A stretch of 64,000 nt of DNA, taken from the IMG/VR virus record IMGVR_UViG_3300011972_000003, positions 1 to 64,000 of that record. One strand, 5' to 3'. Position 1 is the first letter of the stretch. Each line of letters begins with the position of its first letter. Shown one piece after another: positions 2,701-20,138 of this stretch. The DNA comes from a virus. The translations under genes and the position numbers were made by a program. The notes below the pieces were generated by a model that was given only the letters and a program-made list of their open reading frames with translations, was not told where the DNA came from and made no database searches.

Positions 2701-5700
2701 GGCGGTATCAGACCAGCGAATATTAGAGTTAGCAAGAGGACAGCAAGTTACAACCTATAATGACTTTAACCTCAAGATAGGAGAAGCTAACTCAACAAAA
2801 CTTTCACCGATTAATGGAGGGCTTTATGACAAGAACTTTTTCGGCTCGGTTTTTAGAGATAGATGTAATTGTGGTAACTTAAAGAATAGAATTAATATCA
2901 CTTGTAACATCTGCTCTTCAACTGTACTGCCTTCTGATGATGAGGTTTACCGTTACGCTTACATAGATACAACGGTTTACTATTTACTCAGATACAAGGA
3001 GAAGAAATTTTTAGCCTTAGTTCAAGATATATTAGAAATCCCAAAAGGTACAAGAAATAAAATCGACTACCTCTGTTTGTGTAATTATAAGTATGACAAG
3101 AAGGAGAATAGTATAGTATCTTCACTTGAGTATGTTGGGAGCGAGATTTATACTTCACTAGAGGGTCTTATGGCTTTACTAGAGAAACACTACCCAGATA
3201 AATTCAAGGAAGCTCAGAACTATATCAACAAGTATATCATCGTATCTCCTATTTCTCAAAGACCTGTAGCAATTAGAACGGTTAATGGAAAGAAGGAGCT
3301 TGCGGTATCAGGAGAATCTGTCATTTATAAGAGTATCATCTATATGGTTGAAATGGTGAATACTGAGATGAATGCTAGAGGTATCCCACTGGTAGATAAA
3401 GTGATGTATAGAAACTTGCTTAGAAAATTCGTTGTATCTCAGATTATGGCAATGAGTAAGCTAAACAATCCATCTAAACAGAACTTTGCAAGAACCCAGC
3501 TGAAGAAGAGAATAACAAACTCAGCTAGGAACTACATTGTACCAGATATAACTTTAAAGGCTGACGAGGTTTCTATTCCAATTAAAGTAGCTTATGAGAT
3601 GTTTAAGACGGATTTCATAGAGTATCTTAGGGAGAAATACCAGATTAGTCCTTTAGATGCAGAAATGAGGTATATTGACTTTACAACTTACAAGACTTTA
3701 GATGACTTTAGAGGTTGGGTCACAGATAGAAGAGTTATTATCAACAGGGCTCCATCTCTACATAAAGGATCTATTGGCTGTTATAAGGTTGTACTGAACG
3801 ATAACTTTACAATGGGTCTTAATCCTCTTATTATTGAACCTTATGGAGCTGATTTTGACGGGGACTCTCTTTCAATAACAGCTGTACCTAAGGATTATAC
3901 AGAATATGTTGAACAGAGGATAGGACCAGAAGCTTTATACTATCAGGAGTCAAATCTTAAAACCCTGCTTACACCTTCTCACGAGTTTCTTTTAGGGCTT
4001 AACCTTGGAAGTAGAATTGAGATGGGACCTAAGCCTATTAAGATTACAGATTCCTCACAGATAGAAGAGCTTTTAAATGCGAACAAAATTAACTATAACA
4101 CACCTTTAGAGTATAACGGAAAGCTTACTTGTTATGGTAGGCTGCTTCTCTCAACATACATAAAGGGAAATATAGATGACTTAATAGGAGAAGGTATGCC
4201 AATCAATGCAAAGAATATTCTGGTTATTATGGAGTACATCTCAGTTAAGTCAGACAGGTTAGATATCATTCATAAACTAGCTTCTTTTGGTTCAGAGGTT
4301 GTTAGATTTAAAGGAGTAACTTCCCTGACACTTAACGAATTATACCTCGATCTGGATACTAGTTTACATAAGGAAATGGTGAGAATTAAGAATGATGAAA
4401 GCCTATCTCCACAGCTGAAACTAATTAGAATATCGGAGGCTTATAAGAACTTTACTGAACAAGCCAAGGATTCACTTACACCAGCTATTAAAGACAGATT
4501 AGAGAGTTCAAACAGGATTAAGATGAAGCAGGTTCTCGATCTATCTATCCCTAAAATTACTATATCAAATGAGGGGGTTATAGATGTGATGGAAACGAAT
4601 CTCTTGAATGGACTCTCACCCGATGATTACTACTCTGATGCAATAACAAACCGTAAAGTAGTAGGAATTAAGCAAGGAGGTGTAGGGGGTTCAGGATATT
4701 TAACTAGACAGCTGGTAACTATTGGTAAAGGATTTAAGTTTCAAGATAAAGATGCTCCTGGGAATAGTTACTTAGAGGCCCAGGCTTCGCCATACTATAA
4801 AGGAAGACTTACAATAGAAGGGTATGAAGTAACAGAGAAAGATTACGGGAAAACTGTTAAGCTGCCATCTTGTATATTTAATAAGGACACTAACCTATAT
4901 AGAAATCAAGTGTCACAATTATTAGACTATTATCAAGACAGTAACATTGGATTCTCATTCTCTACAACCTTAACAGAAGCGATGACCCAGTCTGTACTCT
5001 CCATTAAACACAACGCTACATTTAAGATGATTAACGAAGGGTTTATACATAGGGCTAAGGCAGATGGAGAACTAGTAGAAGTAACAGATACAACCTATAC
5101 AATTAAGTACGGGGAGGTAACAGAGACTTATCCAAAAAGCAAGGAGTTTATCGTGAATTTGTATAAGTTTAAGAAAGGTGAAGTTATTGGGTATATTCAT
5201 AAGCTTCTCTCTCCGACATATAAGTTTGAGGCGATTTCTAAGCTTATTGATACTTTCCTGATTTCACTAGGTAATAAGAACGCTAATAACAATATACAAC
5301 CATCCGTGAGTTATTCGCCGTATGAAGGTATTATTAGTTATCAATTCTTGCCTCGTAATAAAATCGGTGTGTATATAGGAGATGTCATGATTAATTCTCA
5401 ACACTTAGATACACCTACTCTTTACTATTACCCAGAAGGAGCTAGAGTACCTCGGCACGCTAAGATCTCCTCTGATGTAGTAAGTATGAATAAGTACAGC
5501 AATCCAGAATTAACAGGAGATGAAGCAGTTAGAGATAGATATATGGTTTTCAGACAACAATTCCTAGAAGCTAATGGTAATGTAACTGAAGATTTAATTG
5601 AATTCCTATACCGTATTTGTTCAGTTAATTTAGGAGGACAACTTACATATTCAGGAGTTAAGGGTGCATTTAAAGAACTTCCGGCTCTATCTAAGATTGC

Positions 5701-5812
5701 CTTTGGTTACGCTAATAAGACCTTAGATAATCTACTGGAGAATGAGGGATCGGAAAGAGAAGACCCGCTTGACATTATATTTAGAAGCCAATTAGAATAC
5801 AACAATTTATAA
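2690..5812 (+). CDS. DNA-directed RNA polymerase beta-prime-like subunit (1040 aa)
   Basis: N-terminal Zn-ribbon CNCGNLKNRINITCNICSS resembles the RpoC motif CxCGK...CxxCG. NRAPSLHKGSIGCY resembles NRAPTLHRLGIQAF. EPYGADFDGDSLSI matches the catalytic NADFDGD Mg-binding motif. Confidence 0.8.
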   Translation: MGYKAVSDQRILELARGQQVTTYNDFNLKIGEANSTKLSPINGGLYDKNFFGSVFRDRCNCGNLKNRINITCNICSSTVLPSDDEVYRYAYIDTTVYYLLRYKEKKFLALVQDILEIPKGTRNKIDYLCLCNYKYDKKENSIVSSLEYVGSEIYTSLEGLMALLEKHYPDKFKEAQNYINKYIIVSPISQRPVAIRTVNGKKELAVSGESVIYKSIIYMVEMVNTEMNARGIPLVDKVMYRNLLRKFVVSQIMAMSKLNNPSKQNFARTQLKKRITNSARNYIVPDITLKADEVSIPIKVAYEMFKTDFIEYLREKYQISPLDAEMRYIDFTTYKTLDDFRGWVTDRRVIINRAPSLHKGSIGCYKVVLNDNFTMGLNPLIIEPYGADFDGDSLSITAVPKDYTEYVEQRIGPEALYYQESNLKTLLTPSHEFLLGLNLGSRIEMGPKPIKITDSSQIEELLNANKINYNTPLEYNGKLTCYGRLLLSTYIKGNIDDLIGEGMPINAKNILVIMEYISVKSDRLDIIHKLASFGSEVVRFKGVTSLTLNELYLDLDTSLHKEMVRIKNDESLSPQLKLIRISEAYKNFTEQAKDSLTPAIKDRLESSNRIKMKQVLDLSIPKITISNEGVIDVMETNLLNGLSPDDYYSDAITNRKVVGIKQGGVGGSGYLTRQLVTIGKGFKFQDKDAPGNSYLEAQASPYYKGRLTIEGYEVTEKDYGKTVKLPSCIFNKDTNLYRNQVSQLLDYYQDSNIGFSFSTTLTEAMTQSVLSIKHNATFKMINEGFIHRAKADGELVEVTDTTYTIKYGEVTETYPKSKEFIVNLYKFKKGEVIGYIHKLLSPTYKFEAISKLIDTFLISLGNKNANNNIQPSVSYSPYEGIISYQFLPRNKIGVYIGDVMINSQHLDTPTLYYYPEGARVPRHAKISSDVVSMNKYSNPELTGDEAVRDRYMVFRQQFLEANGNVTEDLIEFLYRICSVNLGGQLTYSGVKGAFKELPALSKIAFGYANKTLDNLLENEGSEREDPLDIIFRSQLEYNNL

Positions 5813-5814
5813 CC

Positions 5815-6279
5815 ATGATTTCACTTTTTATAACACGAGATAATTTAATAGTTAATCAGTTTACTTATGAGGACGATGCAGATTTAGAACTATCTTTACC
5901 TGACGTCGTATCCAGCATAATAAACATAGACTTTACGCCTTCACAGTGGGAGAATTTAGACATACCTGCTATCAACACTATCTTAGAATTTCAAGGTTAT
6001 CAAGACCGACTGCATAAAGTTAATCTTGGAGCTGAGAATATAGATGAGAAGGAGGTAATACTATACAAGGAGAATAACACTCTAGTAGTAACTAAAGATG
6101 AGCTTGTTAATCACGTAAACCTCCTCTCTAAAGTAATTCCAGTAACTAAGGATATTTTGGAGTACTTTATTGAGATGAAACCGGATTACAAGAGATCAAC
6201 TATGAGAGGTCTGCTTGATATACTAAATAAGAACTATGGAATGAACTATATAATCCTAAACAACTATGGAGGAGCATAG
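5815..6279 (+). CDS. hypothetical protein (154 aa) between the beta-prime and beta genes
   Basis: ORF in an operon-like arrangement. No motif recognised. Confidence 0.45.
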   Translation: MISLFITRDNLIVNQFTYEDDADLELSLPDVVSSIINIDFTPSQWENLDIPAINTILEFQGYQDRLHKVNLGAENIDEKEVILYKENNTLVVTKDELVNHVNLLSKVIPVTKDILEYFIEMKPDYKRSTMRGLLDILNKNYGMNYIILNNYGGA

Positions 6280-6505
6280 ATTTAGTGTATGCAGGTTCTT
6301 AAGATGGGATGGATTCAACGTAGATAATTTTATTGAGGAGCTTAAGGGGGAGATAAAACAAGACTCCCTCAAGGTTTCCCCAAATGAGAGTGACCCTACG
6401 ATGATGGACTTAGAGGTTTCAATCCCGCCAGAACTTAGGCATACAGTAGAAAATATATTAAAGAAGTACACAAAAATATACACGTGGATCAATGAACAGC
6501 TATAA
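6266..6505 (+). CDS. hypothetical small protein (79 aa)
   Basis: Short ORF filling the gap between neighbouring genes, with overlapping stop and start codons on both sides. Confidence 0.3.
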   Translation: MEEHRFSVCRFLRWDGFNVDNFIEELKGEIKQDSLKVSPNESDPTMMDLEVSIPPELRHTVENILKKYTKIYTWINEQL

Positions 6506-8720
6506 TTTTTTCATAGAGAACAGACTCCCGGAAATATTAACATCTTACTATAACAGCCCATTAAATAAGAGAGGTTTTGAGGTGGTTAATATATCAGTCG
6601 TTCACCCAAAAGTAGAGTTATCAAGAGCAATAGAACTCGAGCAAACTTATAATTACGAACTTCTGCTAAGCTACACGAATAGAGAGACAGGAGAGATGCC
6701 AGAGCCTATTGTGATTGAAGTTCCTAAGATGGTTAACGATTCCTTTATTATCTTCGGGAAATACAAAACACCTACTTTAATGCTGGATAACGATAGAAAT
6801 GCTAGGTTTTATGAGACTCAGTTCGTTATTGATCCAGATAAGACCTTTAACTACGAAACAGGACTCTTCAAATATATAGACAGTGAGGGGAATGAAGTAG
6901 TGATTGATGTTAATGCTATAGAGGAGTTACCGGAAGAGGCTAGAAAGGTTGATAAGAGTATACTAAAGAAGATTGAAATTAAGTTTAACCTGGATAAGCC
7001 TATAAATGAACTAACTAAAGATCTACTCATTCAAGCTAAGGAGAGGTTCGCAGGTTATAATGACAAAGTCGAAGACCATATCCTAGACAAGAAGGTTTTA
7101 ACGGTTCAAGCTGGTTTAGTTAATTTCATAAAGAGTCACAAGAAAGAGATCTACACAAGAATAGCTTCAGATTTACCAAGGAGAGGGAAGATTTATGCTA
7201 GTGAGATGAACAAATATATCCGTAAGTTCTTTTCACATGGAGGTATGATCGATAATCCTTCTAAAGTAAACTCTCTGACATTCTCTGCGTTATCTAGAAG
7301 GATTAAACTTTCAGAGTACACAGAGTATAACAGAAGCTTAGTAGACATCATAGACCCAATTAGAACTCCAGAAAATGCCAATGCGAATATCGTGAATGAG
7401 CTTAATGTTTGTTCTGTTATAGATGAGGATGGTGGGATTTCAATAAGAGTTCACGAGTTAGATTTTAAACCAGTTGTCCTTTCGTATATTGATTATTTTG
7501 ATGCTTATATAATTGACAACCAGAGTGTAGACTACGTTAATAAGAAAATCAATCCTAAAGTTAAAGTAAGAAGGAGAGGAGAAGTAATTGGAGAGTATAA
7601 GTTATCTGAAGTGCCTAAACCGTGCTATATAGATGCTTCTGCTGATGATAAACTTTCTTATTCAACTAGAAGGATACCGATGATTAACTATACTGACTCA
7701 ATTAGGGTATCAATGGGAGGAAACATGAGTAACCAAGCTGTTGAACTTATAAACCCAGATGTACCAGCAGTTAGTTCAGGACATGATGATGGAGCTAAGT
7801 CTCACCCTTTAAATATCTATGCATTATCTTCAGGAGTAGTTGATTATAAGGATAGAAATGTAATTAAAATAAAGGATGAGAAGGGAAGGTCTGTTGAGTA
7901 TAGATCCCACTTAGTTAATTCTATGTATGACCTAAACGTTGTGGTAGATCCTAAGGTAGAAGTAGGTGATCATGTTAATATTGGGGATACGATCTTTGCA
8001 CCTAGGAATATAACCTCTGAGTTTAGATTAGGAAAGAACTGTAGAATAGCCTTCATGCTTCACGGTAATAACTATGAGGATGGGGTAATAATGGGTTCTC
8101 ACTTGATTCCTAAATTCGCTCACATTGCAGTTAAGGACTATATCTTCATTCTAAAACCTGAGTCTGAGCTTACTTCTATTATGGATCTAGGAAAGGCTGT
8201 AGAGGAAGATGAGCAGATACTTGGAGTTAATGAAAGGATGTCTACTGAGGATTTAGATTTCTTGGCTGGAGCTGTGGATTATGGTAGAGTAAGTAAGCTA
8301 AAGGGATTCTTCATGACGGAGGGTCTAAGAGTGCCTAAGGATTTTGGGAGGGGTTACTTTACAGATATTATAGTTCAGAAAGGGAATGTAGAATCAGATC
8401 CAAATACAGAGCAAGTTATTAATGAAGTATTTAAGAGGTATAAGGCAGCTAGAAAGGAGGTAGCAAATATTGGTGAAATTCCAGAGAGCTACTTAAACTT
8501 GCCAATGGAACAACCAGAACCTCCTCAAATAGATTACAAATACATGATTAAAGTTCGCTTATTACAGGTCAATGAACTCAAGGTAGGGAATAAGATAACA
8601 AATAGGTATGGAAGTAAAGGTCTATGCTCACAAATTATTCCTGAAGATGAGATGCCAAGAACAAAAGATGGGCAGTTGATTGATGTGATAATGAATGCGG
8701 ACAGCACCGTAAAGTCGACT
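6492..8720 (+). CDS. DNA-directed RNA polymerase beta-like subunit, exon 1
   Basis: EVPKMVNDSFIIFGKYKTPTLMLDNDRNARF resembles the beta N-terminal region [51 protein letters not shown] resembles GQNVLVAFMPWNGYNYEDS. The C-terminal NRYGSKGLCSQIIPEDEMPRTKDGQLIDVIMNADSTVKS resembles [36 protein letters not shown]. The reading frame then hits a stop while the homology continues in exon 2. Confidence 0.75.
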
Positions 8721-8974
8721 TGTTGCGGTGGGTAAACCTTGTGAATTGCTGGGATATCCTACATGTGGTGGTGAGGACAATCAGCAGCCCTTATGGGTTC
8801 AACGACTATCGAAACTGTAGTAAAGGAGTAGAGTACACTTAAGCGAGTGGAAGCGCAAGGATAGAGGGTTAAACCTTTATGTGATATAGTCTGAACGTCC
8901 TTAGAAATAGGGAGCTGGAGTAATTTCCGGGATAAGAAGTAGCGAGCTTATCTGAACATAATTGAGCAAGAAAG
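8721..8974 (+). ncRNA. group I self-splicing intron, no ORF, interrupting the RNAP beta gene (boundaries approximate, within about 10 nt)
   Basis: The coding homology of beta breaks at ..STVKST and resumes in frame at [11 protein letters not shown] (cf. MNIGQILETHLG). The intervening 254 nt contain P7/R-like GGGTTCAACGACTATCGAAA (8795..8814) and S-like GATATAGTCT (8883..8892). A U precedes the proposed 5' splice site and a G ends the intron. The element is homologous to the intron in the topoisomerase gene. Confidence 0.6.
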
Positions 8975-9589
8975 ATAGTTTCTCAGCTACTTGAACTAGG
9001 ATTATCTAACTTATCAAGAGCGATGTATGCCAAGTTTGATAAAGATAGAAACCCTAAAGTAATGAGAGATGAACTAAGTGACATAATAAACCCTAAACTA
9101 GCATCTTACAGTGATAAACAAATCTTAGAGTACCATGACAGCTTAAAAGATAAACAGATATACCCAATAGTAACAGGAAACTTTGCTAAGGATATATCGG
9201 CTAAGCTAAGAAAGTATTCAGATAAGTATAAAGTAAGTCTAGATGGGGAACACCTTTATACGAAATCAGGAAGACTCTACACAGAGAACAAGATTTTAGT
9301 AGGAGATATGTACCTTATGAAACTCTACCAACTACCAGAAAAAGGAGCTAAGGTAACTTCTGATAATATGAAAGGAAAGAGACCGGTACTTGGAGCTAAC
9401 TTTAGGAATGAGGGACAGAGTTTAGGAGAGATGGAGTTCTGGGCTTATTCAGCTAATGACCTCTCTGAACTTTTAACTTACAATAGAGATAGAACTAAAC
9501 TACAAGACTCGGCTAAATTCCTTACAGAGTTATTGAAGCTAGGGTTAGAGTTTGATGGGAATTTAAAGGACAAAAAACAGATTAAATAA
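8975..9589 (+). CDS. DNA-directed RNA polymerase beta-like subunit, exon 2
   Basis: [21 protein letters not shown] resembles [58 protein letters not shown] resembles [39 protein letters not shown]. The listed ORF starts at the Met at 9023, but the frame is open from 8966. Confidence 0.7.
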   Translation: [204 protein letters not shown]

Positions 9590-9590
9590 A

Positions 9591-9875
9591 ATGAGAGTAT
9601 TAAAATTTGGAGCTATGTGGTGTGATAAGTGCTCCGTATTGTCTAAGTTAATTAAAGAGTCAGACTTAGATTTACCTGAGATTGAAGAAATAGATTTGGA
9701 TGAAGAACCTGAACTAGCTGAGAAATATGGGGTTCAGACTTTACCTACTATTTGTTTTGTGGATGATCTAGGTAAACTCCTTAAGAAATCGGCAAGAGCA
9801 GCTGAGACTAAACAACCACTTACACCAGAGATCATTTTAAAGGAATATACTAAACTAAGAGAAGAACATGAGTAA
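9591..9875 (+). CDS. thioredoxin-like protein (94 aa)
   Basis: WCDKC (CxxC) active-site motif near the N-terminus. A cis-Pro region is seen at GVQTLPTICF. The size matches the Trx fold. Confidence 0.65.
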   Translation: MRVLKFGAMWCDKCSVLSKLIKESDLDLPEIEEIDLDEEPELAEKYGVQTLPTICFVDDLGKLLKKSARAAETKQPLTPEIILKEYTKLREEHE

Positions 9876-10116
9876 TCTAGAGTTAACAAGAATAAAGGTG
9901 CTGGTTAAGAGAGATACGATGGATACAACTTTCTTAACTGTAGAGGGGAATATAAAGGAAACTGGTACGATATTTGCAGTAGGAAAAGACTGTGAGCACT
10001 TACAACCTGGAGATAGAGTATGGCTAGGACACAGAACTGGAGTAAAGTTAAATTACGAAGGGGAAGAGGTAGAGCTTATGGATGAAGATGAGGTTTTAGG
10101 AAAGATATTAAGTTAG
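9868..10116 (+). CDS. co-chaperonin GroES/Cpn10 homologue (82 aa)
   Basis: RIKVLVKRDTMDT..TIFAVGKD..LQPGDRVWLGHRTGVKLNYEGEEVELMDEDEVLGKI aligns along the whole length with GroES [58 protein letters not shown]. Confidence 0.7.
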   Translation: MSNLELTRIKVLVKRDTMDTTFLTVEGNIKETGTIFAVGKDCEHLQPGDRVWLGHRTGVKLNYEGEEVELMDEDEVLGKILS

Positions 10117-10382
10117 TGATGATTCAGGTAGCATTAGTAGTAGCAGATTGGTGTAATGGTTGTCATAAAGTCCTTGAGAAAATAGAGGCATCCGACATCA
10201 ATCTTGACTACCTGAAAATAGCGGTCTTTGAGGAGAACTTAGAGCTGTGTAACCAAGCTGGAGTCAAATCAATCCCTACAGTCCTGTTTTTAAGCCATTC
10301 TGGGACACTTCTCGATCGGATTGACAGTGACATAACCCCAGAGAAAATAGAAGAAAAGTATAACAAATTAAAAGAAGAATAA
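10116..10382 (+). CDS. thioredoxin-like protein (88 aa)
   Basis: WCNGC CxxC motif. GVKSIPTVLFL matches the Trx cis-Pro region. Second Trx-fold gene, flanking GroES. Confidence 0.6.
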   Translation: MMIQVALVVADWCNGCHKVLEKIEASDINLDYLKIAVFEENLELCNQAGVKSIPTVLFLSHSGTLLDRIDSDITPEKIEEKYNKLKEE

Positions 10383-10383
10383 A

Positions 10384-10608
10384 ATGAAAAAAGGAATTAT
10401 CGCTACAGCATTTGCATTATTTGTACTAGTAAGCTGTAAAGACGAACAAAAAGAAACATTAATAACAGAAGAAGTAACGATTGAAGCTATTAAAAATGAC
10501 TCAGCTTACTTCTCTAATGGAACGTCTGCACCTCTTGAATTAGCAGGAACAGATGTAGCAGAAGGGGATGTGGTAGAGCTGAAGTATATTGTAAAGAAAA
10601 AGAAATAA
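10384..10608 (+). CDS. small lipoprotein (74 aa)
   Basis: Signal peptide with lipobox MKKGIIATAFALFVLVSC. Confidence 0.5.
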   Translation: MKKGIIATAFALFVLVSCKDEQKETLITEEVTIEAIKNDSAYFSNGTSAPLELAGTDVAEGDVVELKYIVKKKK

Positions 10609-10611
10609 TTT

Positions 10612-10959
10612 ATGAGGAAGGTAATTGCAGTTTTAGGGATCACTCTTAGTTCACTGGCTTATTCACAACAACAATATGCTTCTTACTATGGTGACAACTT
10701 TCATAACAGGAATACAGCATCAGGTAAAAGGTTAAATATTTATGGAGACCACTGTGCACATAAGACATACCCTTTTGGAACTAAACTTTTAATAACAAAC
10801 ACAAATACTGGAGCTACTGCCGTTTGTACTGTAATTGATAGAGGTCCGTTTGTAAAGAATAGAGTACTAGATCTTACAACGACAACTTTTAAGCAATTAG
10901 GTGGAAAACTCAGAGACGGCTTAATTCCAGTAACAGTTAAAGTTCATGAGCAAAGCTAA
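10612..10959 (+). CDS. RlpA-like double-psi beta-barrel (DPBB) protein with signal peptide
   Basis: ASYYGDNFHNRNTASGKRLN...AHKTYPFGTKLLITNTNTGATAVCTVIDRGPF matches the RlpA/DPBB signature ASWYG..FHG..TASGE...AAHKTLPFGT.V.VTN..NG.SV.VRVNDRGPF. Confidence 0.6.
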   Translation: MRKVIAVLGITLSSLAYSQQQYASYYGDNFHNRNTASGKRLNIYGDHCAHKTYPFGTKLLITNTNTGATAVCTVIDRGPFVKNRVLDLTTTTFKQLGGKLRDGLIPVTVKVHEQS

Positions 10960-11303
10960 CAAAATAGATATTCAAACCCTCTCTTGGAACCAGCATATTA
11001 GACACAGACCAGGCATGTACGTCTCGAATGTGGATAACCCGACTGTGATTCTAAGGGAGGTTATTGATAATGGAATAGATGAAGTTTTAGGAGGTTACGC
11101 TTCAAAGTTAGGATTTAAACAAGTAGGGGATTTCTTAATGGTATATGATAATGGTAGAGGTATGCCGATTAACCTTAAGAATGACCCAACTAATCCTAAA
11201 GTAAAAATAACCTCTGCCGAAATAGCCACCTCTCGTATGAATTCAGGTAGTAAGTATGAGAAGAATGAGGTCGCAACTGGCATGAATGGTGTGTCATTGA
11301 TTT
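10946..11303 (+). CDS. type II topoisomerase ATPase subunit (GyrB / T4 gp39-like), exon 1 (GHKL domain)
   Basis: HIRHRPGMYV resembles VRKRPGMYIG. REVIDNGIDE resembles YEVVDNSIDE. DNGRGMP resembles DNGRGIP. GMNGVSLI resembles GLHGVGVSVV. The frame hits a stop at 11309 while the NALS motif continues in the downstream exon frame. Confidence 0.7.
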
Positions 11304-11634
11304 TCAGTTAGTTACGCACTCCTCTAGGGAAACTTAGGGGTAATAAAGTCCAAGAACTGCTGGGATAAACTCGTTAAGTAGTAAGTACCAAAGTGTGACA
11401 ATCTTACTAATAGAGACAATCAGCAGCCTTTAGATTAACTAGGGGTTCAACGACTATCGAAAGGTTCGCCGAGTAGAGTACGCTATAAGTCAATAATGAT
11501 AGTGGAAGCATGGACTACCCTAACGTAAAGCCGAGGGTAAAGATATAGTCTAGCCTTAGTGGAGACACTGAGAAGTTCATAGGAGAACTGCATAGGTTTG
11601 ACGAGCCTGTGTGACTAAAAGCGAGGAACAAAAG
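11304..11634 (+). ncRNA. group I self-splicing intron, no ORF, in the topoisomerase II gene (boundaries approximate)
   Basis: Joining 11303 to 11635 reconstitutes GMNGVSLISSNALS (cf. GLHGVGVSVVNALS), with a U before the 5' splice site and a terminal G. The core contains GACAATCAGCAGCC (11415..11428), GGGGTTCAACGACTATCGAAA (11442..11462) and AAGATATAGTCT (11540..11551). These are the same blocks as in the RNAP beta intron. Confidence 0.6.
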
Positions 11635-13133
11635 CATCTAACGCTCTATCTTCAACTTATGTATTATGTTCAAAGGTTACAAAGGATAACTATAAAACCA
11701 GCATAAAGAAAGTAGAAGAAGCGTATAATAAGAATAAAGATGTTTACTACCTGATAGAGTTTAAAGAAGGGAATAAGGTTCGTGAAGATGTACTTAGTTT
11801 GGAGGAGATATTTAAAAAGTACAAGTTGAAAGTGAAGTTGGAGTTTAAACCTTCTACCCTCGTATTCTTTAAACCAGATTATACACTTATCCAATCACCT
11901 AACTATGAATTACCGCTTACAAACCTAGCTCTTGTTAAGTTAATTGTTAAGGAGACTACGAAGAAAGAGGTAGAGTATTTTATAGAAGGTAAGGAGGTTG
12001 AATATGAACTCTTTAAGTGCCCTCTAAATATGACAATAGGGAAAACCAGACTCTTAACAACCTTTGATTTTGATACAGATTTAACTAAGGGAGTATCTAA
12101 GGGATCAGTTAACTCACTTGTTGTTAATAGAGGTCTACATATAAGAGAGATGGAGAATGCTTTAAAGGAAGGGCTTAGAGTGACTTATAATTTAGATGAT
12201 GTTTATGTTCAGTTTGTTTTGAAAGGACTTAACTTATCTATAATACTCTTAGCTAATGAAGTAGGGTTCTCATCTCAAACTAAGGAAAATCTCACTCAAA
12301 TAGATGGTTGGGATAAAAGTTGTAGAGAGAAGTTAATTGAAGAGGTTACTAAGTTTTTAAAGAAGAATAAGGCTGAGTTTGAAGAGCATATTGAGAGAGT
12401 TAAGGAGTTTACCGCCTCTATGAACAAACTTAAAAATATGGACTTCATTAAATCTAAGGTTATCCTCTCTTCTGATATTCGTAAAAGTAAAGGAGGTAAA
12501 GAGATTAGTAAGCTTAGGGATTGCAGCACCAGTAATCGAGCGGATGCAGAACTTTATATCGTAGAGGGAGATTCGGCAGCAGGTTCAATTACATCAGCGA
12601 GAGATTCTAAAGTGCATGGAGTTTATCCGCTCAGAGGTAAGGTGCTGAACTGCCAGAATAAGTCTTTAGAGCAAGTATTAGAAAACAAAGAGATAAGAGA
12701 TTTAATTAACGCTATAGGTGCAGGGATTAAAGGGTATGAACTAAAAGAGAAGCCGAGATTTGGAAAGATTATAGTGGCTACTGATGCTGATGATGACGGT
12801 TATTCTATTCAAGCTTTAGTTCTAGGAGTATTTGGAGAGTATATGCCGCACTTAATTGAGAAAGGATATGTTTACTGTTTAGTTCCACCTCTATATAAGC
12901 AAGAAGGGAAGTATTATTATGACGGAGAGGAGAAAGGATTAAATAGGAATAAGAAGTTCACTCGATATAAAGGGCTTGGTACAATGAACTCTGAAGATGT
13001 AGAAGAAACGTTAATTAAGAATAAGAGGCTGAAACAAGTTACTTTGGATGACCTAGATTATGCTAAAGAAATCCTCGGTACAACTTCAGCTAAGTATGAC
13101 CTAATGAAAGAAGCTGGGATAATTTATGGCTAA
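11635..13133 (+). CDS. type II topoisomerase subunit, exon 2 (transducer + Toprim)
   Basis: Toprim motifs YIVEGDSAAGS (cf. EGDSAGGS) and IIVATDADDDGYSIQ (cf. IMTDADVDGSHI). The listed ORF starts at TTG at 11799, but the frame is open from 11619. Confidence 0.7.
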
Positions 13134-14445
13134 GAAGAATAATAAAGTAGTAACCGAGTCTATTGGAGATATAGTTTCATTCGGGTATACAGAGTTTGGG
13201 AAATACATTAATACATCAAGAGTGTTTCCTAGGCTTCTCGATGGACTTAAACCTTCCTATAGACGTGGTATTTATGCATCTTATTTAGGAGGAAAGGATT
13301 ATGCAAAGTCAGCTGAGGTTTTAGGTAATATGATGAAGTTCCACCCTCACTCTACAGATGGGACGTATGAATCACTGGCAAAGTTTACGCTCTGTGGTAT
13401 TTTAGAAGGAGAAGGGAGTTTTGGTAGAGCTGATATTCTAGGAGATTCTGATGGTCCAGCTGCTGCTCGTTATACCGCTATTAAAGTATCAAAGAAACTC
13501 AGAGCGATGATAGAGCCAGTGTTAGACCTCGTCCCATGGCAAGATAGTGAGGTGAATGGAAATATAAAAGAACCGTCATACCTTCCTACACCATTTCCGT
13601 TATCCTTCTTAGTTGATAGGGTTTCTGGATTAGGGATTGGAGTTTCAGCTATCTTACCAACGTTTTCTATGGAGAGTATGTATGAAGCTTATATAACTAA
13701 TGACCCTAAGAAGCTGAAGTATAGAACTAAGGGACTTAAGATTATAGCAAAAGATTCAGACTTAGATGCACTATGGAAAACAGGGAAAGGATATCTAACT
13801 TACCAGTATGCCAAAATAACAAAGGGAGATAGGGAAGTTCTTATAGAGGGTGACCCAAGTAGATTTCCTATTCAGTTAGATAAAGGTGGTAAGGGAGATG
13901 ACAAACTATTTATGCAGTATAGAGAAGAGGGAAGAATATTAATTGACAACCTCTCCGACAAAACAAAACCAGGACTTCTAAGAGTTTACCTTTCACCGGG
14001 AACTAGAGGAGTGGATATAGACTGGCTGCATAAATACCTAACAGAAAAAGCTACCCACAAGGAAACGTATATGATTAATGTTACTGATGGAGAGACTGTT
14101 AGAACTATAGGGATTAGAGAGTGGATAGATATAACTTACAATAATTACATAAACCTACTGAACTTAAACCGGGATAACAAATTAAAGAGCCTAGAGTTTA
14201 GTAAGAAAGTTTACCTAGCTATGCCTGAAGTGGTTAAAGTATTTCTAAAGGATACGAGTGTCACAAATGAGCAGCTGGCAAAGAAGACCAAAGTAGATTT
14301 AGAGATTATTAAAGTTATTATGTCTAAGCCTATAGGTACACTGAGAAAGACTGATTCAGAAGCTAAGATTAAAGAAATAGAAAAAGAAATAAAAGCACTG
14401 AAGAAGTTTAAAGCGGAAGAATTTATCAAAGAACACATATTTTAA
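13126..14445 (+). CDS. type II topoisomerase DNA breakage-reunion subunit (GyrA / T4 gp52-like)
   Basis: SRVFPRLLDGLKPSYRRGIY resembles RALPDVRDGLKPVHRRVLY. HPHSTDGTYESLAKFT...GSFGRADILGDSDGPAAARYTAIKVSK resembles [40 protein letters not shown], including the catalytic Tyr region. Confidence 0.7.
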   Translation: MAKKNNKVVTESIGDIVSFGYTEFGKYINTSRVFPRLLDGLKPSYRRGIYASYLGGKDYAKSAEVLGNMMKFHPHSTDGTYESLAKFTLCGILEGEGSFGRADILGDSDGPAAARYTAIKVSKKLRAMIEPVLDLVPWQDSEVNGNIKEPSYLPTPFPLSFLVDRVSGLGIGVSAILPTFSMESMYEAYITNDPKKLKYRTKGLKIIAKDSDLDALWKTGKGYLTYQYAKITKGDREVLIEGDPSRFPIQLDKGGKGDDKLFMQYREEGRILIDNLSDKTKPGLLRVYLSPGTRGVDIDWLHKYLTEKATHKETYMINVTDGETVRTIGIREWIDITYNNYINLLNLNRDNKLKSLEFSKKVYLAMPEVVKVFLKDTSVTNEQLAKKTKVDLEIIKVIMSKPIGTLRKTDSEAKIKEIEKEIKALKKFKAEEFIKEHIF

Positions 14446-14457
14446 TACACAACAATT

Positions 14458-14694
14458 ATGAGAGCATTACTTGAGGACATCTTATTAGAGAACGGTTGGA
14501 ACAAAGCAGATGGAGTAGTTAACAAATCAATCCGAATCAATGGAGTAGAAATTTGGGAAGCTGAATGGTTAGGAGGAGAGTTACTGGGAAGAGTGAATGG
14601 GAAGATTAGAAATATTGTTACACTGTTTGAAGAAATGAAGTTGAATAAGACTGTAGCAAGAGCCGCTTTTCTTAGTATATTGAGACCGGCTTAG
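14458..14694 (+). CDS. hypothetical small protein (78 aa)
   Basis: ORF only. Confidence 0.35.
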   Translation: MRALLEDILLENGWNKADGVVNKSIRINGVEIWEAEWLGGELLGRVNGKIRNIVTLFEEMKLNKTVARAAFLSILRPA

Positions 14695-14814
14695 GCTGTG
14701 GGGAAAACCTTATATATGAGAAGAGAACTACAGGAGAGTGTATTTGGCGGCATTTTCCTGTTCTTCTAATCTCACGTGTAAATCAAATAAGTATAACAAA
14801 AAAAAAACAACATT

Positions 14815-15231
14815 ATGAGCACAAACAGAAACAAAACAGGAAAATTAAACTTGAACGTACAAATGAAACAAGCTATCGATTTAAGTTTAGCTTCAGGAGT
14901 ACCAGTTTTATTCCTGTCAAATCCCGGATGTTTCACTGAGGATACCAAAGTTATAACTGACAAAGGGGAATTAACTTTTGGAGAACTTTTAGAGAGACAT
15001 AATCAAGGGGAAAAATTTAGTGTAGTTTCTTGGGATACAGAAGCTCAGCAAGAAATTAACCCAGCTATGAAGTCAGCGTTTATCACAAAAGAGGTGGATG
15101 AGCTTATTGAAGTAGAGTTAAGTAATGGAGAAGTTTATAGATGTACTCCTGATCACTTACACCTACTTGCTGACGGAAAGACTTGGGTAGCTGCTGAGGA
15201 ATTAACAGTAGGACAAGAAGTAAAGGGGTAG
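14815..15231 (+). CDS. MoxR-like AAA+ ATPase N-extein (38 aa) fused to a split-intein N-fragment (IntN, about 100 aa)
   Basis: GVPVLFLSNPG is the start of the Walker A motif. It is immediately followed by CFTEDTKVITDKGE (intein block A, Cys1 at 14929..14931) and ...YRCTPDHLHLL (block B, TxxH). The protein ends at a stop after about 100 intein residues, as split-intein IntN fragments do. Confidence 0.7.
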   Translation: MSTNRNKTGKLNLNVQMKQAIDLSLASGVPVLFLSNPGCFTEDTKVITDKGELTFGELLERHNQGEKFSVVSWDTEAQQEINPAMKSAFITKEVDELIEVELSNGEVYRCTPDHLHLLADGKTWVAAEELTVGQEVKG

Positions 15232-15237
15232 AAAATT

Positions 15238-16257
15238 ATGGAAGAGATTAGCAGACTTTTTTATGTGAATTTCAGTGTTAAAGATTTAGTAGAGTATACC
15301 GGTGGAGATCAGTTTATAGATTTATTTCTCCAAGCTAAAGGGTATAAAATCTACAACTTCTTTAATAACCTGACAAACCAGCACTACGTAGGGGATAATT
15401 CATCAACTATGCAGGAGCGTCTGTTTAACTCTCTATTCGGACATTTTACCTACTTAAGAGAACAAAGGGACTATGGTGTAGATGGGAAGTACTTAGATAT
15501 ATTAGAGTACGGGCCAGAGAACTTTTACATTAGAATCTTACCACCTATTAATGGACATACTTACGATCAAGAAAAAGATGAAGAAGTGTGGATTAGTAGG
15601 CTTAATGCTTTTGTAGGGGATTTAAATGAGCTTAACCTTCCGGGATACAATAGAAGTAGAACTGGAAAGGGAATTTATTTAAATGAACCTATAAGACATG
15701 AAAAGATTTGTGTAAAGGGTAAAGACGGGTGTTATAAATTCATTTTTCCAAGCGAGCTAACTGAAGAGTTTATAGAGGTTGATTCAAAGGAATTTTATTC
15801 AGAGATGGGGAAACGGGGTATGCAGACTCACAGGGAAAATGGAACACACGTATTTAACAAAGCTCACCAAGTAAAACTACAGAAAGCTGGACTTAAATCT
15901 CAAAAGGAAAATGGTACAGGAATCTACAGCCCAGAAGTTAGAGAGAAGGCTTTTTATAATAGTCGTAAATCTCTAAGGGAAAGGAAAGTAGGTAGCTGTC
16001 ACGATCCAGAGCTTCAGAAAAAGATTAGAGAGTATGCCACTAAGGTATCATTCTTTAATAGGCTCAATGAAAGTATCCAGTTAATCTATGATATGTTTTA
16101 CAGAGGGACGCCAATTAATGAGCAGAGTTATAATTACGTGAAAACAAACAAACACTTCTCGTATAAAAAACTTCTGGTAATCCCTAAAATTATACCCCTC
16201 ATCATAGTCAATAACTTAATAAATAATAACAACAGTACACATTATGGAATCAACTAA
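15238..16257 (+). CDS. free-standing ORF (339 aa) between the split-intein halves; candidate homing endonuclease (family not recognised)
   Basis: It lies exactly between the IntN and IntC genes. Its end overlaps the IntC start by 14 nt. No LAGLIDADG, HNH or GIY-YIG motif was recognised with confidence. Confidence 0.4.
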   Translation: MEEISRLFYVNFSVKDLVEYTGGDQFIDLFLQAKGYKIYNFFNNLTNQHYVGDNSSTMQERLFNSLFGHFTYLREQRDYGVDGKYLDILEYGPENFYIRILPPINGHTYDQEKDEEVWISRLNAFVGDLNELNLPGYNRSRTGKGIYLNEPIRHEKICVKGKDGCYKFIFPSELTEEFIEVDSKEFYSEMGKRGMQTHRENGTHVFNKAHQVKLQKAGLKSQKENGTGIYSPEVREKAFYNSRKSLRERKVGSCHDPELQKKIREYATKVSFFNRLNESIQLIYDMFYRGTPINEQSYNYVKTNKHFSYKKLLVIPKIIPLIIVNNLINNNNSTHYGIN

Positions 16258-17566
16258 AATAACAGTAAAAAGCATAAAAAGAATTAAATTAGAAGCACCA
16301 GTAAAAGTATATGATTTGGAAGTAGATCACCCGAGTCATAACTTTAAATTAGCCGCTGGGAACTTCGTGCATAACTGTGGGAAAACTACGATTGTGCAAA
16401 AATACGCCAAGGCTAATGGATATGGATATGTAGGAATTAACGGGGGTGAGTATTCTCCTGAAGATATCCTAGGTTTCCCAGTGAATCAGAATGGTGAAGC
16501 AGTAAACCTAAAGCCGGACTGGTTCAAGAAAGTGGAGGAAGAATCTGCTACTCATGAAAAGGTAATCTTATTTATTGACGAGTTAACTACCGCTTCTGAG
16601 TATGTACAGTCTCCGCTATTGAAGGTGATCTTTGATAGAATGGTGGGTCAGAGAAAGTTACCATCAAATGTAGAGATTATTTCTGCAGGTAACTATCAGG
16701 AGAATCTAGGGCAGAACTTTGACCTTATCTCTCCAATTATTAACAGATTCATGGTGTATAACTTAATATCTGTGACAAAGGAGGACTTCCAGTTGTTCCT
16801 AGACGCTGACTTCGCCGCTACAATAGACTTTAGAGAGTCACCAGATGAAGTAGAGGTTGATGAGAAAGTTATCCAAGAGGCACTTATGGACTTCATCGCG
16901 GCGAAAGGGCTTAGTCTAGATGTAATGAATAATACTGAGCTTTCTGATTTATATAGAGGGAGAAGTAGAGTATTCAACCCGCCAACATGGAGATCTGTAG
17001 GTAGACTTAAACCACTCCTACACGCCGCTGCTAAGAAAGGTCTATTAGGGTCTATGGTAACTAAAACTCTAGTAAATGGTCTAATTGGATTCCTACCTGA
17101 TAAAGAGCTTCAAGGTTCATTCAACGGAGATGTGGGAGAAACTCTAATAAATCTTCTAAAACAAAATCCAGCTCTATCTAATTTAATGAAGACTGCGGTA
17201 ACGTTTAAAGATGTTGAGTGGTTCTTAGATTCAAACATAGAGAAAGGAATTGATGAGGCTAAACTTCAAGAATTCTTAGAGATGTTTGATAAGGATAGTA
17301 AGATCTTAACCTTTGGTGAGGCTGAGAAACTGATTGATAACTTCTCCTCTAAACTATGGTCAATCAAGACTACTTACCTTAAACCTAAATTAGAGAACAA
17401 AGAGATTAAGCCAGCGGACAGTAAAGCTTATATTAGCAAGTTCTCAGAAGGTATTAACAAGGTGATTGATGTACTTGAGAAATTAGCCAAGAAAGATGAT
17501 ATTCACGAGCACAACATAGTTAAGAATAAGAGAAAGTCTGTTGAATCAGTTAATAGAATCGGGTAA
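16244..17566 (+). CDS. split-intein C-fragment (IntC, 44 aa) fused to the MoxR-like AAA+ ATPase C-extein
   Basis: KVYDLEVDHPSHNFKLAAGNFVHN matches intein blocks F and G (VYDLxV..HNF...hVHN), followed by the +1 Cys. CGKTT then completes the Walker A motif begun in the N-extein (SNPG|CGKTT). Walker B is at ILFIDELTTAS. IISAGNYQEN...LISPIINRF resembles the MoxR sensor and Arg-finger region. Confidence 0.75.
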   Translation: MESTKITVKSIKRIKLEAPVKVYDLEVDHPSHNFKLAAGNFVHNCGKTTIVQKYAKANGYGYVGINGGEYSPEDILGFPVNQNGEAVNLKPDWFKKVEEESATHEKVILFIDELTTASEYVQSPLLKVIFDRMVGQRKLPSNVEIISAGNYQENLGQNFDLISPIINRFMVYNLISVTKEDFQLFLDADFAATIDFRESPDEVEVDEKVIQEALMDFIAAKGLSLDVMNNTELSDLYRGRSRVFNPPTWRSVGRLKPLLHAAAKKGLLGSMVTKTLVNGLIGFLPDKELQGSFNGDVGETLINLLKQNPALSNLMKTAVTFKDVEWFLDSNIEKGIDEAKLQEFLEMFDKDSKILTFGEAEKLIDNFSSKLWSIKTTYLKPKLENKEIKPADSKAYISKFSEGINKVIDVLEKLAKKDDIHEHNIVKNKRKSVESVNRIG

Positions 17567-17568
17567 AC

Positions 17569-19101
17569 ATGAGAAAGGATTATGTAAAGAAAGTAGATGA
17601 GTTTAACAGCAAATACTACGTTAACTACATCTACGAAGACATCTCAGACAATTTAGATCCGAGTCACATGGGAGTTCCTATTGCTGGGTTAATTCAAAAG
17701 GATATAACTCACTGGAAACTTCTGATGAGGGAGAGCGTGTTTGAAGATAAGGAGAGTAAAATAAGAGAGAGTGTTATATATCATGAGTATGGACACGCTT
17801 TCTTTGCTCACCACCTCCTAGCTTATAAGGGTTTAAAGACTCTGGAGGGGATTATTAACAAACCGGATTATGTAGAAAGGATGGCCAAAATAAGCGGTCG
17901 TCCTAAAATCTACATAAAGGCTCTTCTATCTAACCAGCAGTTTATATTCAACCTTCTTAACATTGCTGCAGATTGTGAGATTAACTCTAAGATCTTAACT
18001 CTGGAGGATGTAGAAGCTATAGACCAGGCCTTTGAAGCTGACTCTATCCACCCATCTAAGTATGCATTCCTTGAGGGTAAAACTTATCTTGAGTACGTAG
18101 AAATGGTAGCTGAGTATCTAAACTTATTCCTACCACCAAAACAACAAGATCAACAGGGAGGCGGAGACGGACAACAGGGAGAAGGAGAAGGCGAAGGTGA
18201 TGGTCAAGGTGGAGGTTCTGGAGAATGGGATTTATCTGGAATGCCTGGCTCTGGTACTGGATCTAACTTTATTACACCTGACATGATCGAGAAAATGGTT
18301 GATGAAGGTTTGATAGATGAAGATGGGAACTTGACAGATAAAGGTAAGGAGCAGATGAAGGAGCTTAAGAGTTCTGGAGGTGAATCTAAAGAAGGTCAGG
18401 GAGAGTCTAGTGGAAATAATGGTGAAGATGGAGAACAAGAAGGTGGAGCAGGAAAGCCAGACCCTAGATTCCAAGATAATGGTAGAGGGAACTCAGGAGG
18501 AGCAGTACTAACTAGGAATACTCAGAATATCTTAAAGTCTATGGATGATTTGTTTAGAGACTTGAGAAATAAAGAGGTAACTAAAATGACTACTACAAGA
18601 AACCTATTTAAGAATCAATTAAGGGGTCGTAGTGGTAATATGTACGTTCCAGCTCTTAAGATGAACCCAGCTAAGGTAAAGGTTGAACAAATGACCTTCC
18701 TTGTTGATGTCTCCGGGTCTATGGATGAGCGTTCTATTTTCGGTATTATAAACGATATCGCAACTAGAGTGAAGAAGATAGGTCTAGATAGGGTTAGGCT
18801 TATTACATGGAATACTGGATTTGTACAAGACTTGATGATAAGAGATTTTGAGCCTAAGAGAGGTATGCTTCGTATTGGAGGTGGTACTGATCTAGCTAAA
18901 GGTTTAAAACATATCAGAGAGCTTGACGAAGGTGTTCCTATTGTAGTAATATCTGACCTTTGTGATGACATGAAAGCTTGGAATAGAGAGTTTGACAAAA
19001 TAAAAGATCCCAAGTATGTTGTTACTCTAGGACATGTAAATAAAAGTGACGTAAAAGCGATAAACAAGGATGTGAAAATCTTTGAGAGCGATTACGATTA
19101 A
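17569..19101 (+). CDS. von Willebrand factor A protein with N-terminal HExxH metallopeptidase-like domain (MoxR partner, DUF2201-like architecture)
   Basis: VIYHEYGHAFFAHH carries an HExxH motif. A Gly/Glu/Gln-rich low-complexity linker follows. FLVDVSGSMDERS is the MIDAS DxSGS motif, and ..GGGTDLAKGL matches vWA. Confidence 0.7.
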   Translation: MRKDYVKKVDEFNSKYYVNYIYEDISDNLDPSHMGVPIAGLIQKDITHWKLLMRESVFEDKESKIRESVIYHEYGHAFFAHHLLAYKGLKTLEGIINKPDYVERMAKISGRPKIYIKALLSNQQFIFNLLNIAADCEINSKILTLEDVEAIDQAFEADSIHPSKYAFLEGKTYLEYVEMVAEYLNLFLPPKQQDQQGGGDGQQGEGEGEGDGQGGGSGEWDLSGMPGSGTGSNFITPDMIEKMVDEGLIDEDGNLTDKGKEQMKELKSSGGESKEGQGESSGNNGEDGEQEGGAGKPDPRFQDNGRGNSGGAVLTRNTQNILKSMDDLFRDLRNKEVTKMTTTRNLFKNQLRGRSGNMYVPALKMNPAKVKVEQMTFLVDVSGSMDERSIFGIINDIATRVKKIGLDRVRLITWNTGFVQDLMIRDFEPKRGMLRIGGGTDLAKGLKHIRELDEGVPIVVISDLCDDMKAWNREFDKIKDPKYVVTLGHVNKSDVKAINKDVKIFESDYD

Positions 19102-19138
19102 ACAATAACTAACAAATCTTTAACTAACTATATAATTT

Positions 19139-20137
19139 ATGATTTTAAGTATCGACTGTGGGTACGGACACTTTAAGTACTGTATCTACGATGAAAAAAC
19201 AAGTAAAATTATTAAGTTAGATAAAGAGGTTACAGGTGTGATAGAGGTGCCAGAAGGAGATTCATCCATGGTTACCTCTGTTGCAACCTACCACCACTTC
19301 GATGGAAAAAGGTATTTAGTGGGTGAGCTGGCGACAAAACTAGACCGGCTCCCTATTGATACTTTAACTTACGAAGGATTCAAGGAGGTAGGACCAATAC
19401 TAATCTCTTATCTACTTAACAAATTCCAATCAGAAGGTATTGAAAAGATCGCTTTGGGGTTGACCCCCGTGATCTGGGATAAGCGTGAAGATTACAAAAG
19501 CTATATCTTAGAGAAACTTAATTTGCCTTCCGAAAAGATAGATATTCATGTTCAAGGTCTTTCAGGTCACGCTACTTATTCACAGTACGGACTAGATATA
19601 AACCCTGATGGAAAAATCTCTATGGAAGCTAAATCTGCTAACTATTTTGGACTGGACGTTGGGTTTAATACAATAGACACTTACCTTGTTTTAAATAACT
19701 CTCTCCTCGATTATGGGATTAAAGGGTTTGCAAATAAAGGTGTAGTTCTTGTAGCAAATAAAATTAAAACCCATATCTTTGAACACCTTGGAATCTCTAT
19801 AAATGATGTTGAAGCTAAGGAAGTGGTAACGATGGGAGGTTATAAGAAGAGAGGTAAGTTCCACGATTTATCAGACAAGATCACTGAGTTTATCGTAGAG
19901 TACCTAACTTCAACCTTCAATATGTTAGAGGAGGAGTATGGAGATCAGTTTAACAAAGTAGATAATATTCTTCTATTTGGTGGAGGAGCTGAGATAATTA
20001 AGATCTACATGGAGAAGTCAGACGTTATTAGAAAAACAATAGCTGACCTTTATGGAGATGAGTTCCTATTACTACCAAAAGATAAAGCAGAGTATTACAA
20101 CACAATCGGATATTCACTATTAAGCAGCAAGAAATAA
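19139..20137 (+). CDS. actin-like ATPase (ParM/Alp family)
   Basis: Phosphate-1 motif ILSIDCGYGHFKY. Phosphate-2 motif YFGLDVGFNTIDTYLV. Adenosine motif ILLFGGGAEII. C-terminal connect-2 motif IGYSLL. Confidence 0.6.
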   Translation: MILSIDCGYGHFKYCIYDEKTSKIIKLDKEVTGVIEVPEGDSSMVTSVATYHHFDGKRYLVGELATKLDRLPIDTLTYEGFKEVGPILISYLLNKFQSEGIEKIALGLTPVIWDKREDYKSYILEKLNLPSEKIDIHVQGLSGHATYSQYGLDINPDGKISMEAKSANYFGLDVGFNTIDTYLVLNNSLLDYGIKGFANKGVVLVANKIKTHIFEHLGISINDVEAKEVVTMGGYKKRGKFHDLSDKITEFIVEYLTSTFNMLEEEYGDQFNKVDNILLFGGGAEIIKIYMEKSDVIRKTIADLYGDEFLLLPKDKAEYYNTIGYSLLSSKK

Positions 20138-20138
20138 G

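Follow-up and report, generated by a model that had tools for sequence, protein, structure and literature searches.

Within a 64,000-nucleotide stretch of viral DNA (positions 1 to 64,000 of the IMG/VR record IMGVR_UViG_3300011972_000003; from here on, the window), the gene for a GyrB-like subunit of a type II topoisomerase comes out of the ORF list as two pieces (10946-11311 and a second one ending at 13133), which gene callers annotate as ORFs of 121 and 433 aa. The question raised by this locus is whether the gene is truly split or is interrupted by an insert that is removed before translation and, if so, how such an insert came to be there. We consider it very likely (probability of roughly 0.9) that positions 11293..11623 hold a td-like group I intron, representing one stage of an ordinary homing cycle.

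The gene belongs to a + strand cluster that also includes RNA polymerase (RNAP) beta'-like (2690-5812) and beta-like genes, thioredoxins, a DPBB protein and the GyrA-like partner subunit (13126..14445, + strand; Pfam DNA_topoisoIV, 1.1e-29), which overlaps the end of the GyrB-like gene by 8 nt. An actin-like protein of the MreB/Alp7A family (19139..20137, +) and an SPFH/Band-7 protein (20695..21534, +) accompany the two multisubunit-RNAP-like genes in the window. The topoisomerase shares at most 33% amino acid identity with any protein in the phage collection. As far as sequence comparison goes, this is a phage with no close cultured relative, its DNA matches in that collection being confined to intron cores. 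Contigs of the lineage reach ca. 199 kb. The lineage appears to be undescribed, and in the literature we found no account of it nor of an intron at this GyrB site.

Intron boundaries and the predicted spliced topoisomerase

When the region was searched alone, the Rfam model Intron_gpI (RF00028) matched from 11274 to 11572 over its full length (model positions 1-253) with 63.3 bits (E=9e-16), the gathering score being 50 bits. There are no ORFs of at least 40 aa within 11293..11623 in the + strand ORF list, and read-through from exon 1 into the intron hits a TAG at 11309-11311. Copies identical to the window's intron occur in contigs from several independent samples.

The boundaries of the intron (331 nt, + strand) were set by comparison with an intron-less allele. 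A protein search with the spliced product proposed in the earlier note retrieved an uninterrupted 618-aa homologue (P0001), whose gene lies on contigs of as much as 186,568 bp and has 96% nucleotide identity to that of the window. Five related contigs (L001, L002, L070, L103, L111) lack the intron exactly. At the insertion site, the intron-less allele (P0001; L001, L002) reads ..AATGGAGT|GGGAACAAAAGCATCTAAC.. and encodes GMNGVGTKASNALS (..GMNGV|GTKASNALS); over a longer stretch the L001 DNA is AATGGAGT|GGGAACAAAAGCATC, and the empty site is also given as ..ATGAATGGAGTGGGAACAAAAGC.. in this contig. In the window, ..AATGGTGT is followed by the intron (GTCATTG...AAAAGCG) and then by AGGAACAAAAGC.. 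or, in the longer form, by an intron ending in TAAAAGCG and an exon 2 starting with AGGAACAAAAGCATC. Among the junctions compared, only the join of U11292 to A11624 reproduces the intron-less allele. The joined codons GGU GU|A GGA ACA AAA GCA read G-V-G-T-K-A, and the product has 618 aa, equal to P0001 in length and in its junction peptide (ATGMNGVGTKASNALSS). Group I chemistry calls for a U as the last base of the 5' exon and a G as that of the intron. Here the former is U11292, paired with G11316, and the latter, the terminal guanosine (omega-G), is G11623 (+ strand), as placed by the intron-less allele together with this rule; the true 3' end of the intron is ..UAAAAGCG|.

The earlier note had located the intron at 11304..11634, that is, 11 nt too far downstream at both ends, a shift that keeps both the reading frame and the 618-aa length. 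Its junction (11303 joined to 11635), which was said to rebuild the G-loop, would instead give GVSLISSNALS (..GVSLISSNALSS), where "SLI" is intron read-through and "GTKA" is lost, and the 3' end that it reported (..CAAAAG|) is exon sequence. Mismatches to the intron-less allele amount to 81 nt with that junction versus 74 nt with 11292|11624, the extra ones clustering at the junction, and the corrected junction fits the GyrB consensus GxxGVG better. The former 5' site is also doubtful because inspection revealed no G in the intron's 5' part with which U11303 could pair. The placement of the insertion between the G-loop glycines and NALS was right, the site lying inside the ATP-lid G-loop. Other frame-compatible U...G junctions, enumerated by hand (11297|11635, 11301|11627, 11304|11627 and 11302|11622), do not yield the intron-less peptide. 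In this case, joining exons by motif gave a plausible yet wrong junction, and it took an intron-less allele to settle the boundaries.

Exon 1 (10946..11292, + strand), delimited from the ORF list, the alignment with P0001 and 13 other homologues and the L001 DNA, carries the GHKL N-box (EVIDNGIDE) and G1 box (DNGRGMP) as well as the beginning of the G2 box (GMNGV), to whose Val codon it contributes the first two bases. Exon 2 (11624..13133, + strand), placed by Pfam and by a product length equal to that of P0001, starts with A|GGA ACA AAA GCA TCT AAC, or (V)GTKASNALS..., and covers the transducer, Toprim and GyrB C-terminal domains. In the product, Toprim is matched by Pfam at 1.3e-13, and the weaker DNA_gyraseB_C and DNA_gyraseB matches are below their curated cut-offs. 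Annotation of the topoisomerase B subunit of this phage lineage should thus be one 618-aa protein, not one of 121 and one of 433 aa.

A td-like ribozyme and its covariation

That a group I intron sits in the gene of the type II topoisomerase B subunit, as the earlier note had claimed, is borne out by the fold as well as by the Rfam score. The P3-P8 and P4-P6 helices, a P7 with a bulged base and the P3 pseudoknot all form, and 84 out of 84 modelled base pairs are canonical in the window copy. In P1 (11288-11294/11314-11320, within the region 11288..11320), obtained from minimum free energy (MFE) folds of 11 variants, the exon bases GGUGU (11288-11292) are matched to an internal guide sequence, GCACU (11316-11320); the pair at the 5' splice site is U11292.G11316, and an intronic extension (11293-11315) is closed by a UUC loop. 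It is followed by the P2 hairpin (11321..11340), of 8 bp with a GAAA tetraloop and 97.7% of cells paired, and by the 5' strand of P3 (11347..11352), which pairs with 11511-11516 according to the Rfam alignment and family-wide compensatory changes. The P4-P5-P5a-P6 domain (11357..11445), drawn from the Rfam alignment and the pairing on the variants, comprises P4 (11357-63/11420-26), P5 (11370-72/11413-15), P5a (11379-85/11403-09), with four compensatory pairs among the variants, and P6 (11427-33/11439-45), which covaries family-wide and is the position of an ORF in relatives (seen in L135). The 5' strand of P7 (11450..11457) has C11451 bulged, 11450 and 11452-57 pairing with 11545-51; we take G11452-C11550 to be the guanosine-binding pair, by analogy with known group I introns. 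Between P7 and P3' lie P7.1 (11458-11468), which is short in the window copy, and P7.2 (11481-86/11499-504), which covaries family-wide. The segment 11511..11551 (Rfam alignment and variant pairing) holds the P3' strand, the P8 hairpin (11517-21/11534-38), J8/7 (AAAGAU) and the P7' strand (11545-51), and the peripheral hairpins P9 (11555-61/11566-72, with a GAGA loop), P9.1 and P9.2 extend over 11555..11612, the last two ending at 11612. All of these elements are on the + strand.

The architecture of this intron (P1, P2, P3-P8, P4-P6, P7 plus P7.1/P7.2, P9-P9.2) resembles that of T4 td (IA2-like); its helix order, which includes P7.1/P7.2 and P9.1/P9.2, would presumably be that of the td type (IA2) in the Michel-Westhof scheme. 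By inspection we found no convincing P10 pairing: the best candidate makes four of five pairs (exon +2..+6 GGAAC with GUUAC at 11311-11315) and the variants do not conserve it.

Eleven distinct natural variants of the intron were gathered from ENA, Logan and IMG/VR contigs and aligned with the hypervariable P1 loop removed, each P1 being folded separately. Exon GGNGU pairs with guide GCN'CU, with a U.G at the splice site, in 11/11 variants, and the five exon-guide pairs of P1 form in every one of the 11 MFE folds. The N/N' pair (exon position -3 with the guide) is U-A in six variants, A-U in four and C-G in one, N being the third, synonymous position of a Gly codon, and the +1 and +2 pairs of P1 covary as well. 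With the P1 loop removed, 99.3% of the 847 alignment cells pair, and seven pairs, three in P1 and four in P5a, changed on both sides; none of 500 shuffles reached this number and slid controls gave none. RNAalifold on 42 diverse family members found compensatory changes in P3, P6 and P7.2, and helices beyond these three were not recovered from this set: P4 and P7 are invariant in it as a result of its selection, and alignment gaps removed P8 and P9. In its co-evolution with a synonymous exon base, the guide sequence offers a clear case from nature of what established theory leads one to expect.

On this fold, we infer that the intron is spliced. It would be transcribed within the mRNA of the topoisomerase B subunit, where the 5' exon end GGUGU would pair with the guide GCACU; an external guanosine would attack after U11292, and the freed 5' exon would then attack after G11623. 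Joining of the exons (..GGU GU|A GGA ACA..) would restore the ATP-lid motif GMNGVGTKASNALS and the 618-aa protein, and unspliced RNA would yield only a 121-aa fragment ending at TAG 11309-11311.

Splicing would not take place if the insert were decayed and the gene were truly split, with the ATPase N-terminus and the remainder made as two polypeptides in the manner of T4 gp39/gp60. Split topoisomerases are indeed known in phages (PMC2988022), and the 121-aa and 433-aa ORFs are what gene callers report. However, the break falls inside the G2 ATP-lid motif, and the downstream ORFs (433/444 aa) start so far along that ca. 55 residues would be uncoded. Furthermore, the ribozyme is 98-100% conserved and the compensatory changes of P1 follow the synonymous exon base, which makes sense only if splicing is under selection. 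We consider a split gene hardly credible.

Kinship with the RNA polymerase intron

A second intron interrupts the RNAP beta-like gene of the window at 8711..8964 (+ strand, 254 nt; Rfam 53.2 bits, the RF00028 match spanning 8701-8914) and lacks both an ORF and P2. Its exons (6492-8710 and 8965-9589, + strand) join to a protein of 947 aa, as against the 6492-8735 and 9023-9589 of the ORF list, so the subunit should be annotated as 947 aa and not as 747 plus 188. The intron-less 947-aa allele of L004 and L005 reads ACCGT|TGCAAG, and the junction in the window is ACCGU|...AAUUG|AGCAAG. Its P1 is CACCGU|AA..UUGCGGUG, and it has a clean P10 of 5 bp (AGCAA/UUGUU). The intron-less alleles that the earlier note proposed to look for in related phages were hence found for both genes and define both insertion sites.

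An Rfam scan of the whole 64-kb window at the gathering threshold gave 0 matches, neither intron being reported, and one by E-value gave the topoisomerase intron only; both appear when short regions are searched. The empty scan is an artefact of the speed filters rather than evidence of absence, and Rfam scanning with default filters may therefore overlook introns such as these in a window of this size. With an nhmmer profile built from 120 family members we found exactly two introns in the window, with no third intron of the family.

The two introns had been described as homologous, closely related and without homing endonucleases, and their coexistence as implying spread within the genome by reverse splicing or recombination. 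They do belong to one intron family, and neither window copy carries an endonuclease. The shared exact blocks (14-19 nt) are also real: GGTTCAACGACTATCGAAA occurs at 8796 and 11444 and GACAATCAGCAGCC at 8776 and 11415, with a chance expectation of ~0. These blocks correspond to the conserved core (P4'/P6, J6/7-P7, P7.1-P7.2 and J8/7-P7'), and the pattern GACAATCAGCAGCC..GGTTCAACGACTATCG is found in at least 120 IMG/VR stretches. Since they are family-wide, they are no sign of a recent duplication. Close kinship is not what the rest of the sequence indicates. A global alignment has 193 identical positions in 357 columns; with 53% identity, each is the other's 34th relative out of 41 in the 42-member alignment, and blastn aligns 78 nt at 73%, about 70th among the family matches. 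Judged by these comparisons, both are ordinary members of a very large phage intron family.

The origin of one intron from the other within the genome, as close paralogues spread by reverse splicing or ectopic recombination, would account for their common family, the exact blocks, the lack of an ORF in both window copies and the likeness of their insertion contexts (GGTGT|AGGAACAAA versus ACCGT|AGCAAGAAA), in which 7 of the first 10 exon-2 bases are the same. Against it stand the low identity and the family-wide nature of the blocks, and also the structure of the RNAP intron, which lacks P2 and differs in the P5, P6, P8 and P9 regions. The guide sequences (GCACU in the topoisomerase intron versus GCGGUG) differ as well, in related genomes either intron is found without the other, and the topoisomerase intron has forms of its own with an endonuclease-like ORF. 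We regard such an origin as highly improbable. Spread within the genome is not implied, because the introns are distant and the blocks are family-wide; independent presence and absence, together with the ORF-bearing forms, points to ordinary homing at the DNA level and to recombination between co-infecting phages.

The sites themselves read ..GT|AGGAACAAAA (11624..11633) and ..GT|AGCAAGAAAG (8965..8974). Exon 2 of either gene opens with A if the intron is present and with G or T if the site is empty; possible reasons for the A are a requirement of splicing, a mark left by co-conversion, immunity to the endonuclease or chance. Elsewhere in IMG/VR, three stretches (L022, L024 and L040; 3300008150_000034, 3300019477_000057 and 3300006462_000047) hold four copies of the intron core within ca. 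2 kb, which suggests that several introns of this family interrupt their genes.

Relatives, candidate endonucleases and a proposed homing cycle

Both introns are present in the window and in L003, L006, L007, L015, L054 and L057. The five contigs with an empty topoisomerase site carry the RNAP intron only, and L004 and L005 carry the topoisomerase intron only, the RNAP intron being missing from these two and present in all other relatives. A genome lacking both introns was not seen among the related contigs compared. The topoisomerase site is empty in 5 loci, holds an intron in more than 15 and an ORF-bearing form in 7. Exon 2 starts with A (GTA, Val) in every intron-containing topoisomerase allele and with G or T in the empty ones. 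The intron body is 98-100% identical across lineages, and the 150-nt exon flanks are 94.7-98% identical to those of the window; the P1 loop varies in length, giving introns of 331, 330, 325 and 316 nt.

The genomes around these sites are mosaic, with 81-100% identity per 500 nt; over positions 900..21400 of the window, the values per 500 nt lie between ca. 59% and 100% for L001 and between 85% and 100% for L003 and L004, with low-identity islands at ca. 10000-10500 (small ORFs upstream of the topoisomerase gene) and ca. 14500. This pattern indicates that recombination is frequent in the population. Against L003, blocks of ca. 100% identity are centred on both introns. They may reflect recent exchange or co-conversion, and are no more than suggestive, given that mosaicism extends throughout the genomes.

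In L131 and L134-L139, the intron at the same topoisomerase site is ca. 1.04-1.1 kb long and carries an ORF of 241-269 aa. The ORF begins in the P6 loop and runs through P6', J6/7, P7 and P7.1, its stop lying inside GGAGUAGAGUAC, and therefore its last ca. 45 residues (..NISSSTTIETL..), the most conserved part of the protein, are encoded by the ribozyme core. Its product has two N-terminal zinc fingers and a GIY-YIG-like alpha/beta fold, with invariant Y126, K135, G137 and E185 that are compatible with a putative GIY-YIG catalytic Tyr/Arg/Glu motif. Searches against Pfam gave no GIY-YIG or T5orf172 match at E<=1, and those against PHROGs and PDB sequences gave nothing significant. The family amounts to 8 clusters in 5.8 billion proteins, and its ORF lies inside the topoisomerase intron in the two clusters looked up as well as in the contigs recovered by DNA pattern. 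The ORF evolves with a dN/dS of 0.17-0.37, and a nonsense-mutated version was found in two contigs from two samples. The window itself gave no HNH, GIY-YIG or LAGLIDADG domain that could belong to a free-standing endonuclease in a Pfam search of 56 ORFs. One window ORF of at least 100 aa matches the PHROGs family phrog_1314, "HNH endonuclease" (E=1.3e-16), a match that was not among the 20 window ORFs tested singly.

The site thus exists in four states (empty, ORF-less intron, intron with an intact ORF and intron with a nonsense-mutated ORF), and this is why we read the window's intron as a stage of an ordinary homing cycle. Without an endonuclease gene, the window copy is not autonomously mobile. 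It would pass between co-infecting relatives by homologous recombination, probably aided in trans by the endonuclease of ORF-carrying alleles; both the nuclease activity of that ORF and this route of spread are inferred. As a tentative extension of the homing cycle, which we think rather unlikely to be right in full, the ORF would represent a previously undescribed homing-endonuclease family, and the ORF-less copy would persist as a hitch-hiker mobilised in trans.

How the ORF-less and ORF-bearing forms are related bears on this point. The ORF lineages are deeply diverged (dS ~1.0) in a nearly identical flanking ribozyme, which suggests that ORF and ribozyme modules have separate histories, and in the ORF-less form P6 and P7.1 fold as compact hairpins with good pairing and are not simple deletion products of the ORF form. 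Both observations would fit an ancestral ORF-less intron that a GIY-YIG-like ORF invaded later ("collaborative homing"), the window copy not being derived by endonuclease loss. On the other hand, the nonsense-mutated ORF in two samples indicates that decay does occur, and ORF-bearing forms are found on all three P1/P5a backgrounds, one of them close to the window's: in L136 and L138 the 5' part of the intron differs from it by two substitutions, one P1-loop base and C11357T. In addition, the ORF clusters looked up lie only in the topoisomerase intron. We regard the ancestry of the ORF-less form as possible, although somewhat doubtful.

Among the closest known counterparts is the T4 td intron with I-TevI, of subgroup IA2, with a GIY-YIG homing endonuclease in P6a. 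The window copy differs in having no ORF and in its host gene, a topoisomerase II B subunit, and the ORF of its relatives differs in its N-terminal zinc fingers, in the lack of a GIY-YIG sequence motif detected in Pfam and in its C-terminal 45 aa encoded by the ribozyme core (P6'-J6/7-P7-P7.1); there is no DNA similarity outside the core motifs. The sole DNA matches in the phage collection are introns of Staphylococcus Twort-like/SEP1-like and Bacillus AR9/PBS1 phages, over 57-144 nt of core at 69-86% identity. As here, those introns are short, ORF-less, often several per genome and located in essential genes; the phages and genes are other ones, and the likeness is restricted to the conserved core. 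It is textbook knowledge that phages carry group I introns in essential genes, some of them with endonucleases and some without (PMC2988022).

An intron at another site of the same kind of gene is found in Vibrio phage 150E35-1 (OX241562.1), where an unannotated group I intron (L140, 1939..2283; RF00028, 81.4 bits) splits a GyrB-like topoisomerase IIA gene into two annotated CDSs. It is inserted before the Toprim part, in an unrelated phage with 30% amino acid identity. Two small "hypothetical proteins" are annotated over it on the opposite strand. In our window, a 138-aa ORF downstream of the topoisomerase genes (14815..15231, +), kept in all related contigs, has a sub-threshold Pfam match to Intein_splicing (Hint; E=1.5e-6, 28.6 bits versus a cut-off of 35.8) and a further match to a PHROG "DNA helicase" profile, at the C-terminal end of the latter. 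A split intein, an intein remnant and a free-standing Hint domain are possible readings.

A further parallel is gp210 of the jumbo phage PhiPA3, the endonuclease of an intron in an RNAP gene, which mediates competition between phages (Birkholz et al. 2024, PMC11620839). Both systems involve a large phage, multisubunit RNAP genes and a group I intron, and the target of gp210 is the allele without the intron in a co-infecting relative (PMC11620839). It differs in being an HNH enzyme that was tested experimentally; the RNAP intron described here, known from sequence, is ORF-less in the ca. 25 loci inspected, with no ORF-bearing form seen.

At this one site, the population data display the homing cycle stage by stage, as established theory predicts. 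If the ORF is indeed an endonuclease, its family would join two zinc fingers to a highly diverged GIY-YIG-like domain, with its last ca. 45 codons doubling as ribozyme core, and this candidate family without a Pfam assignment may merit biochemical work. The ORF-less window copy would then be immune to the ORF enzyme and moved in trans during co-infection, and the intron/endonuclease polymorphism would amount to competition between co-circulating strains of a ca. 185-kb phage, comparable to that of PhiPA3 gp210.
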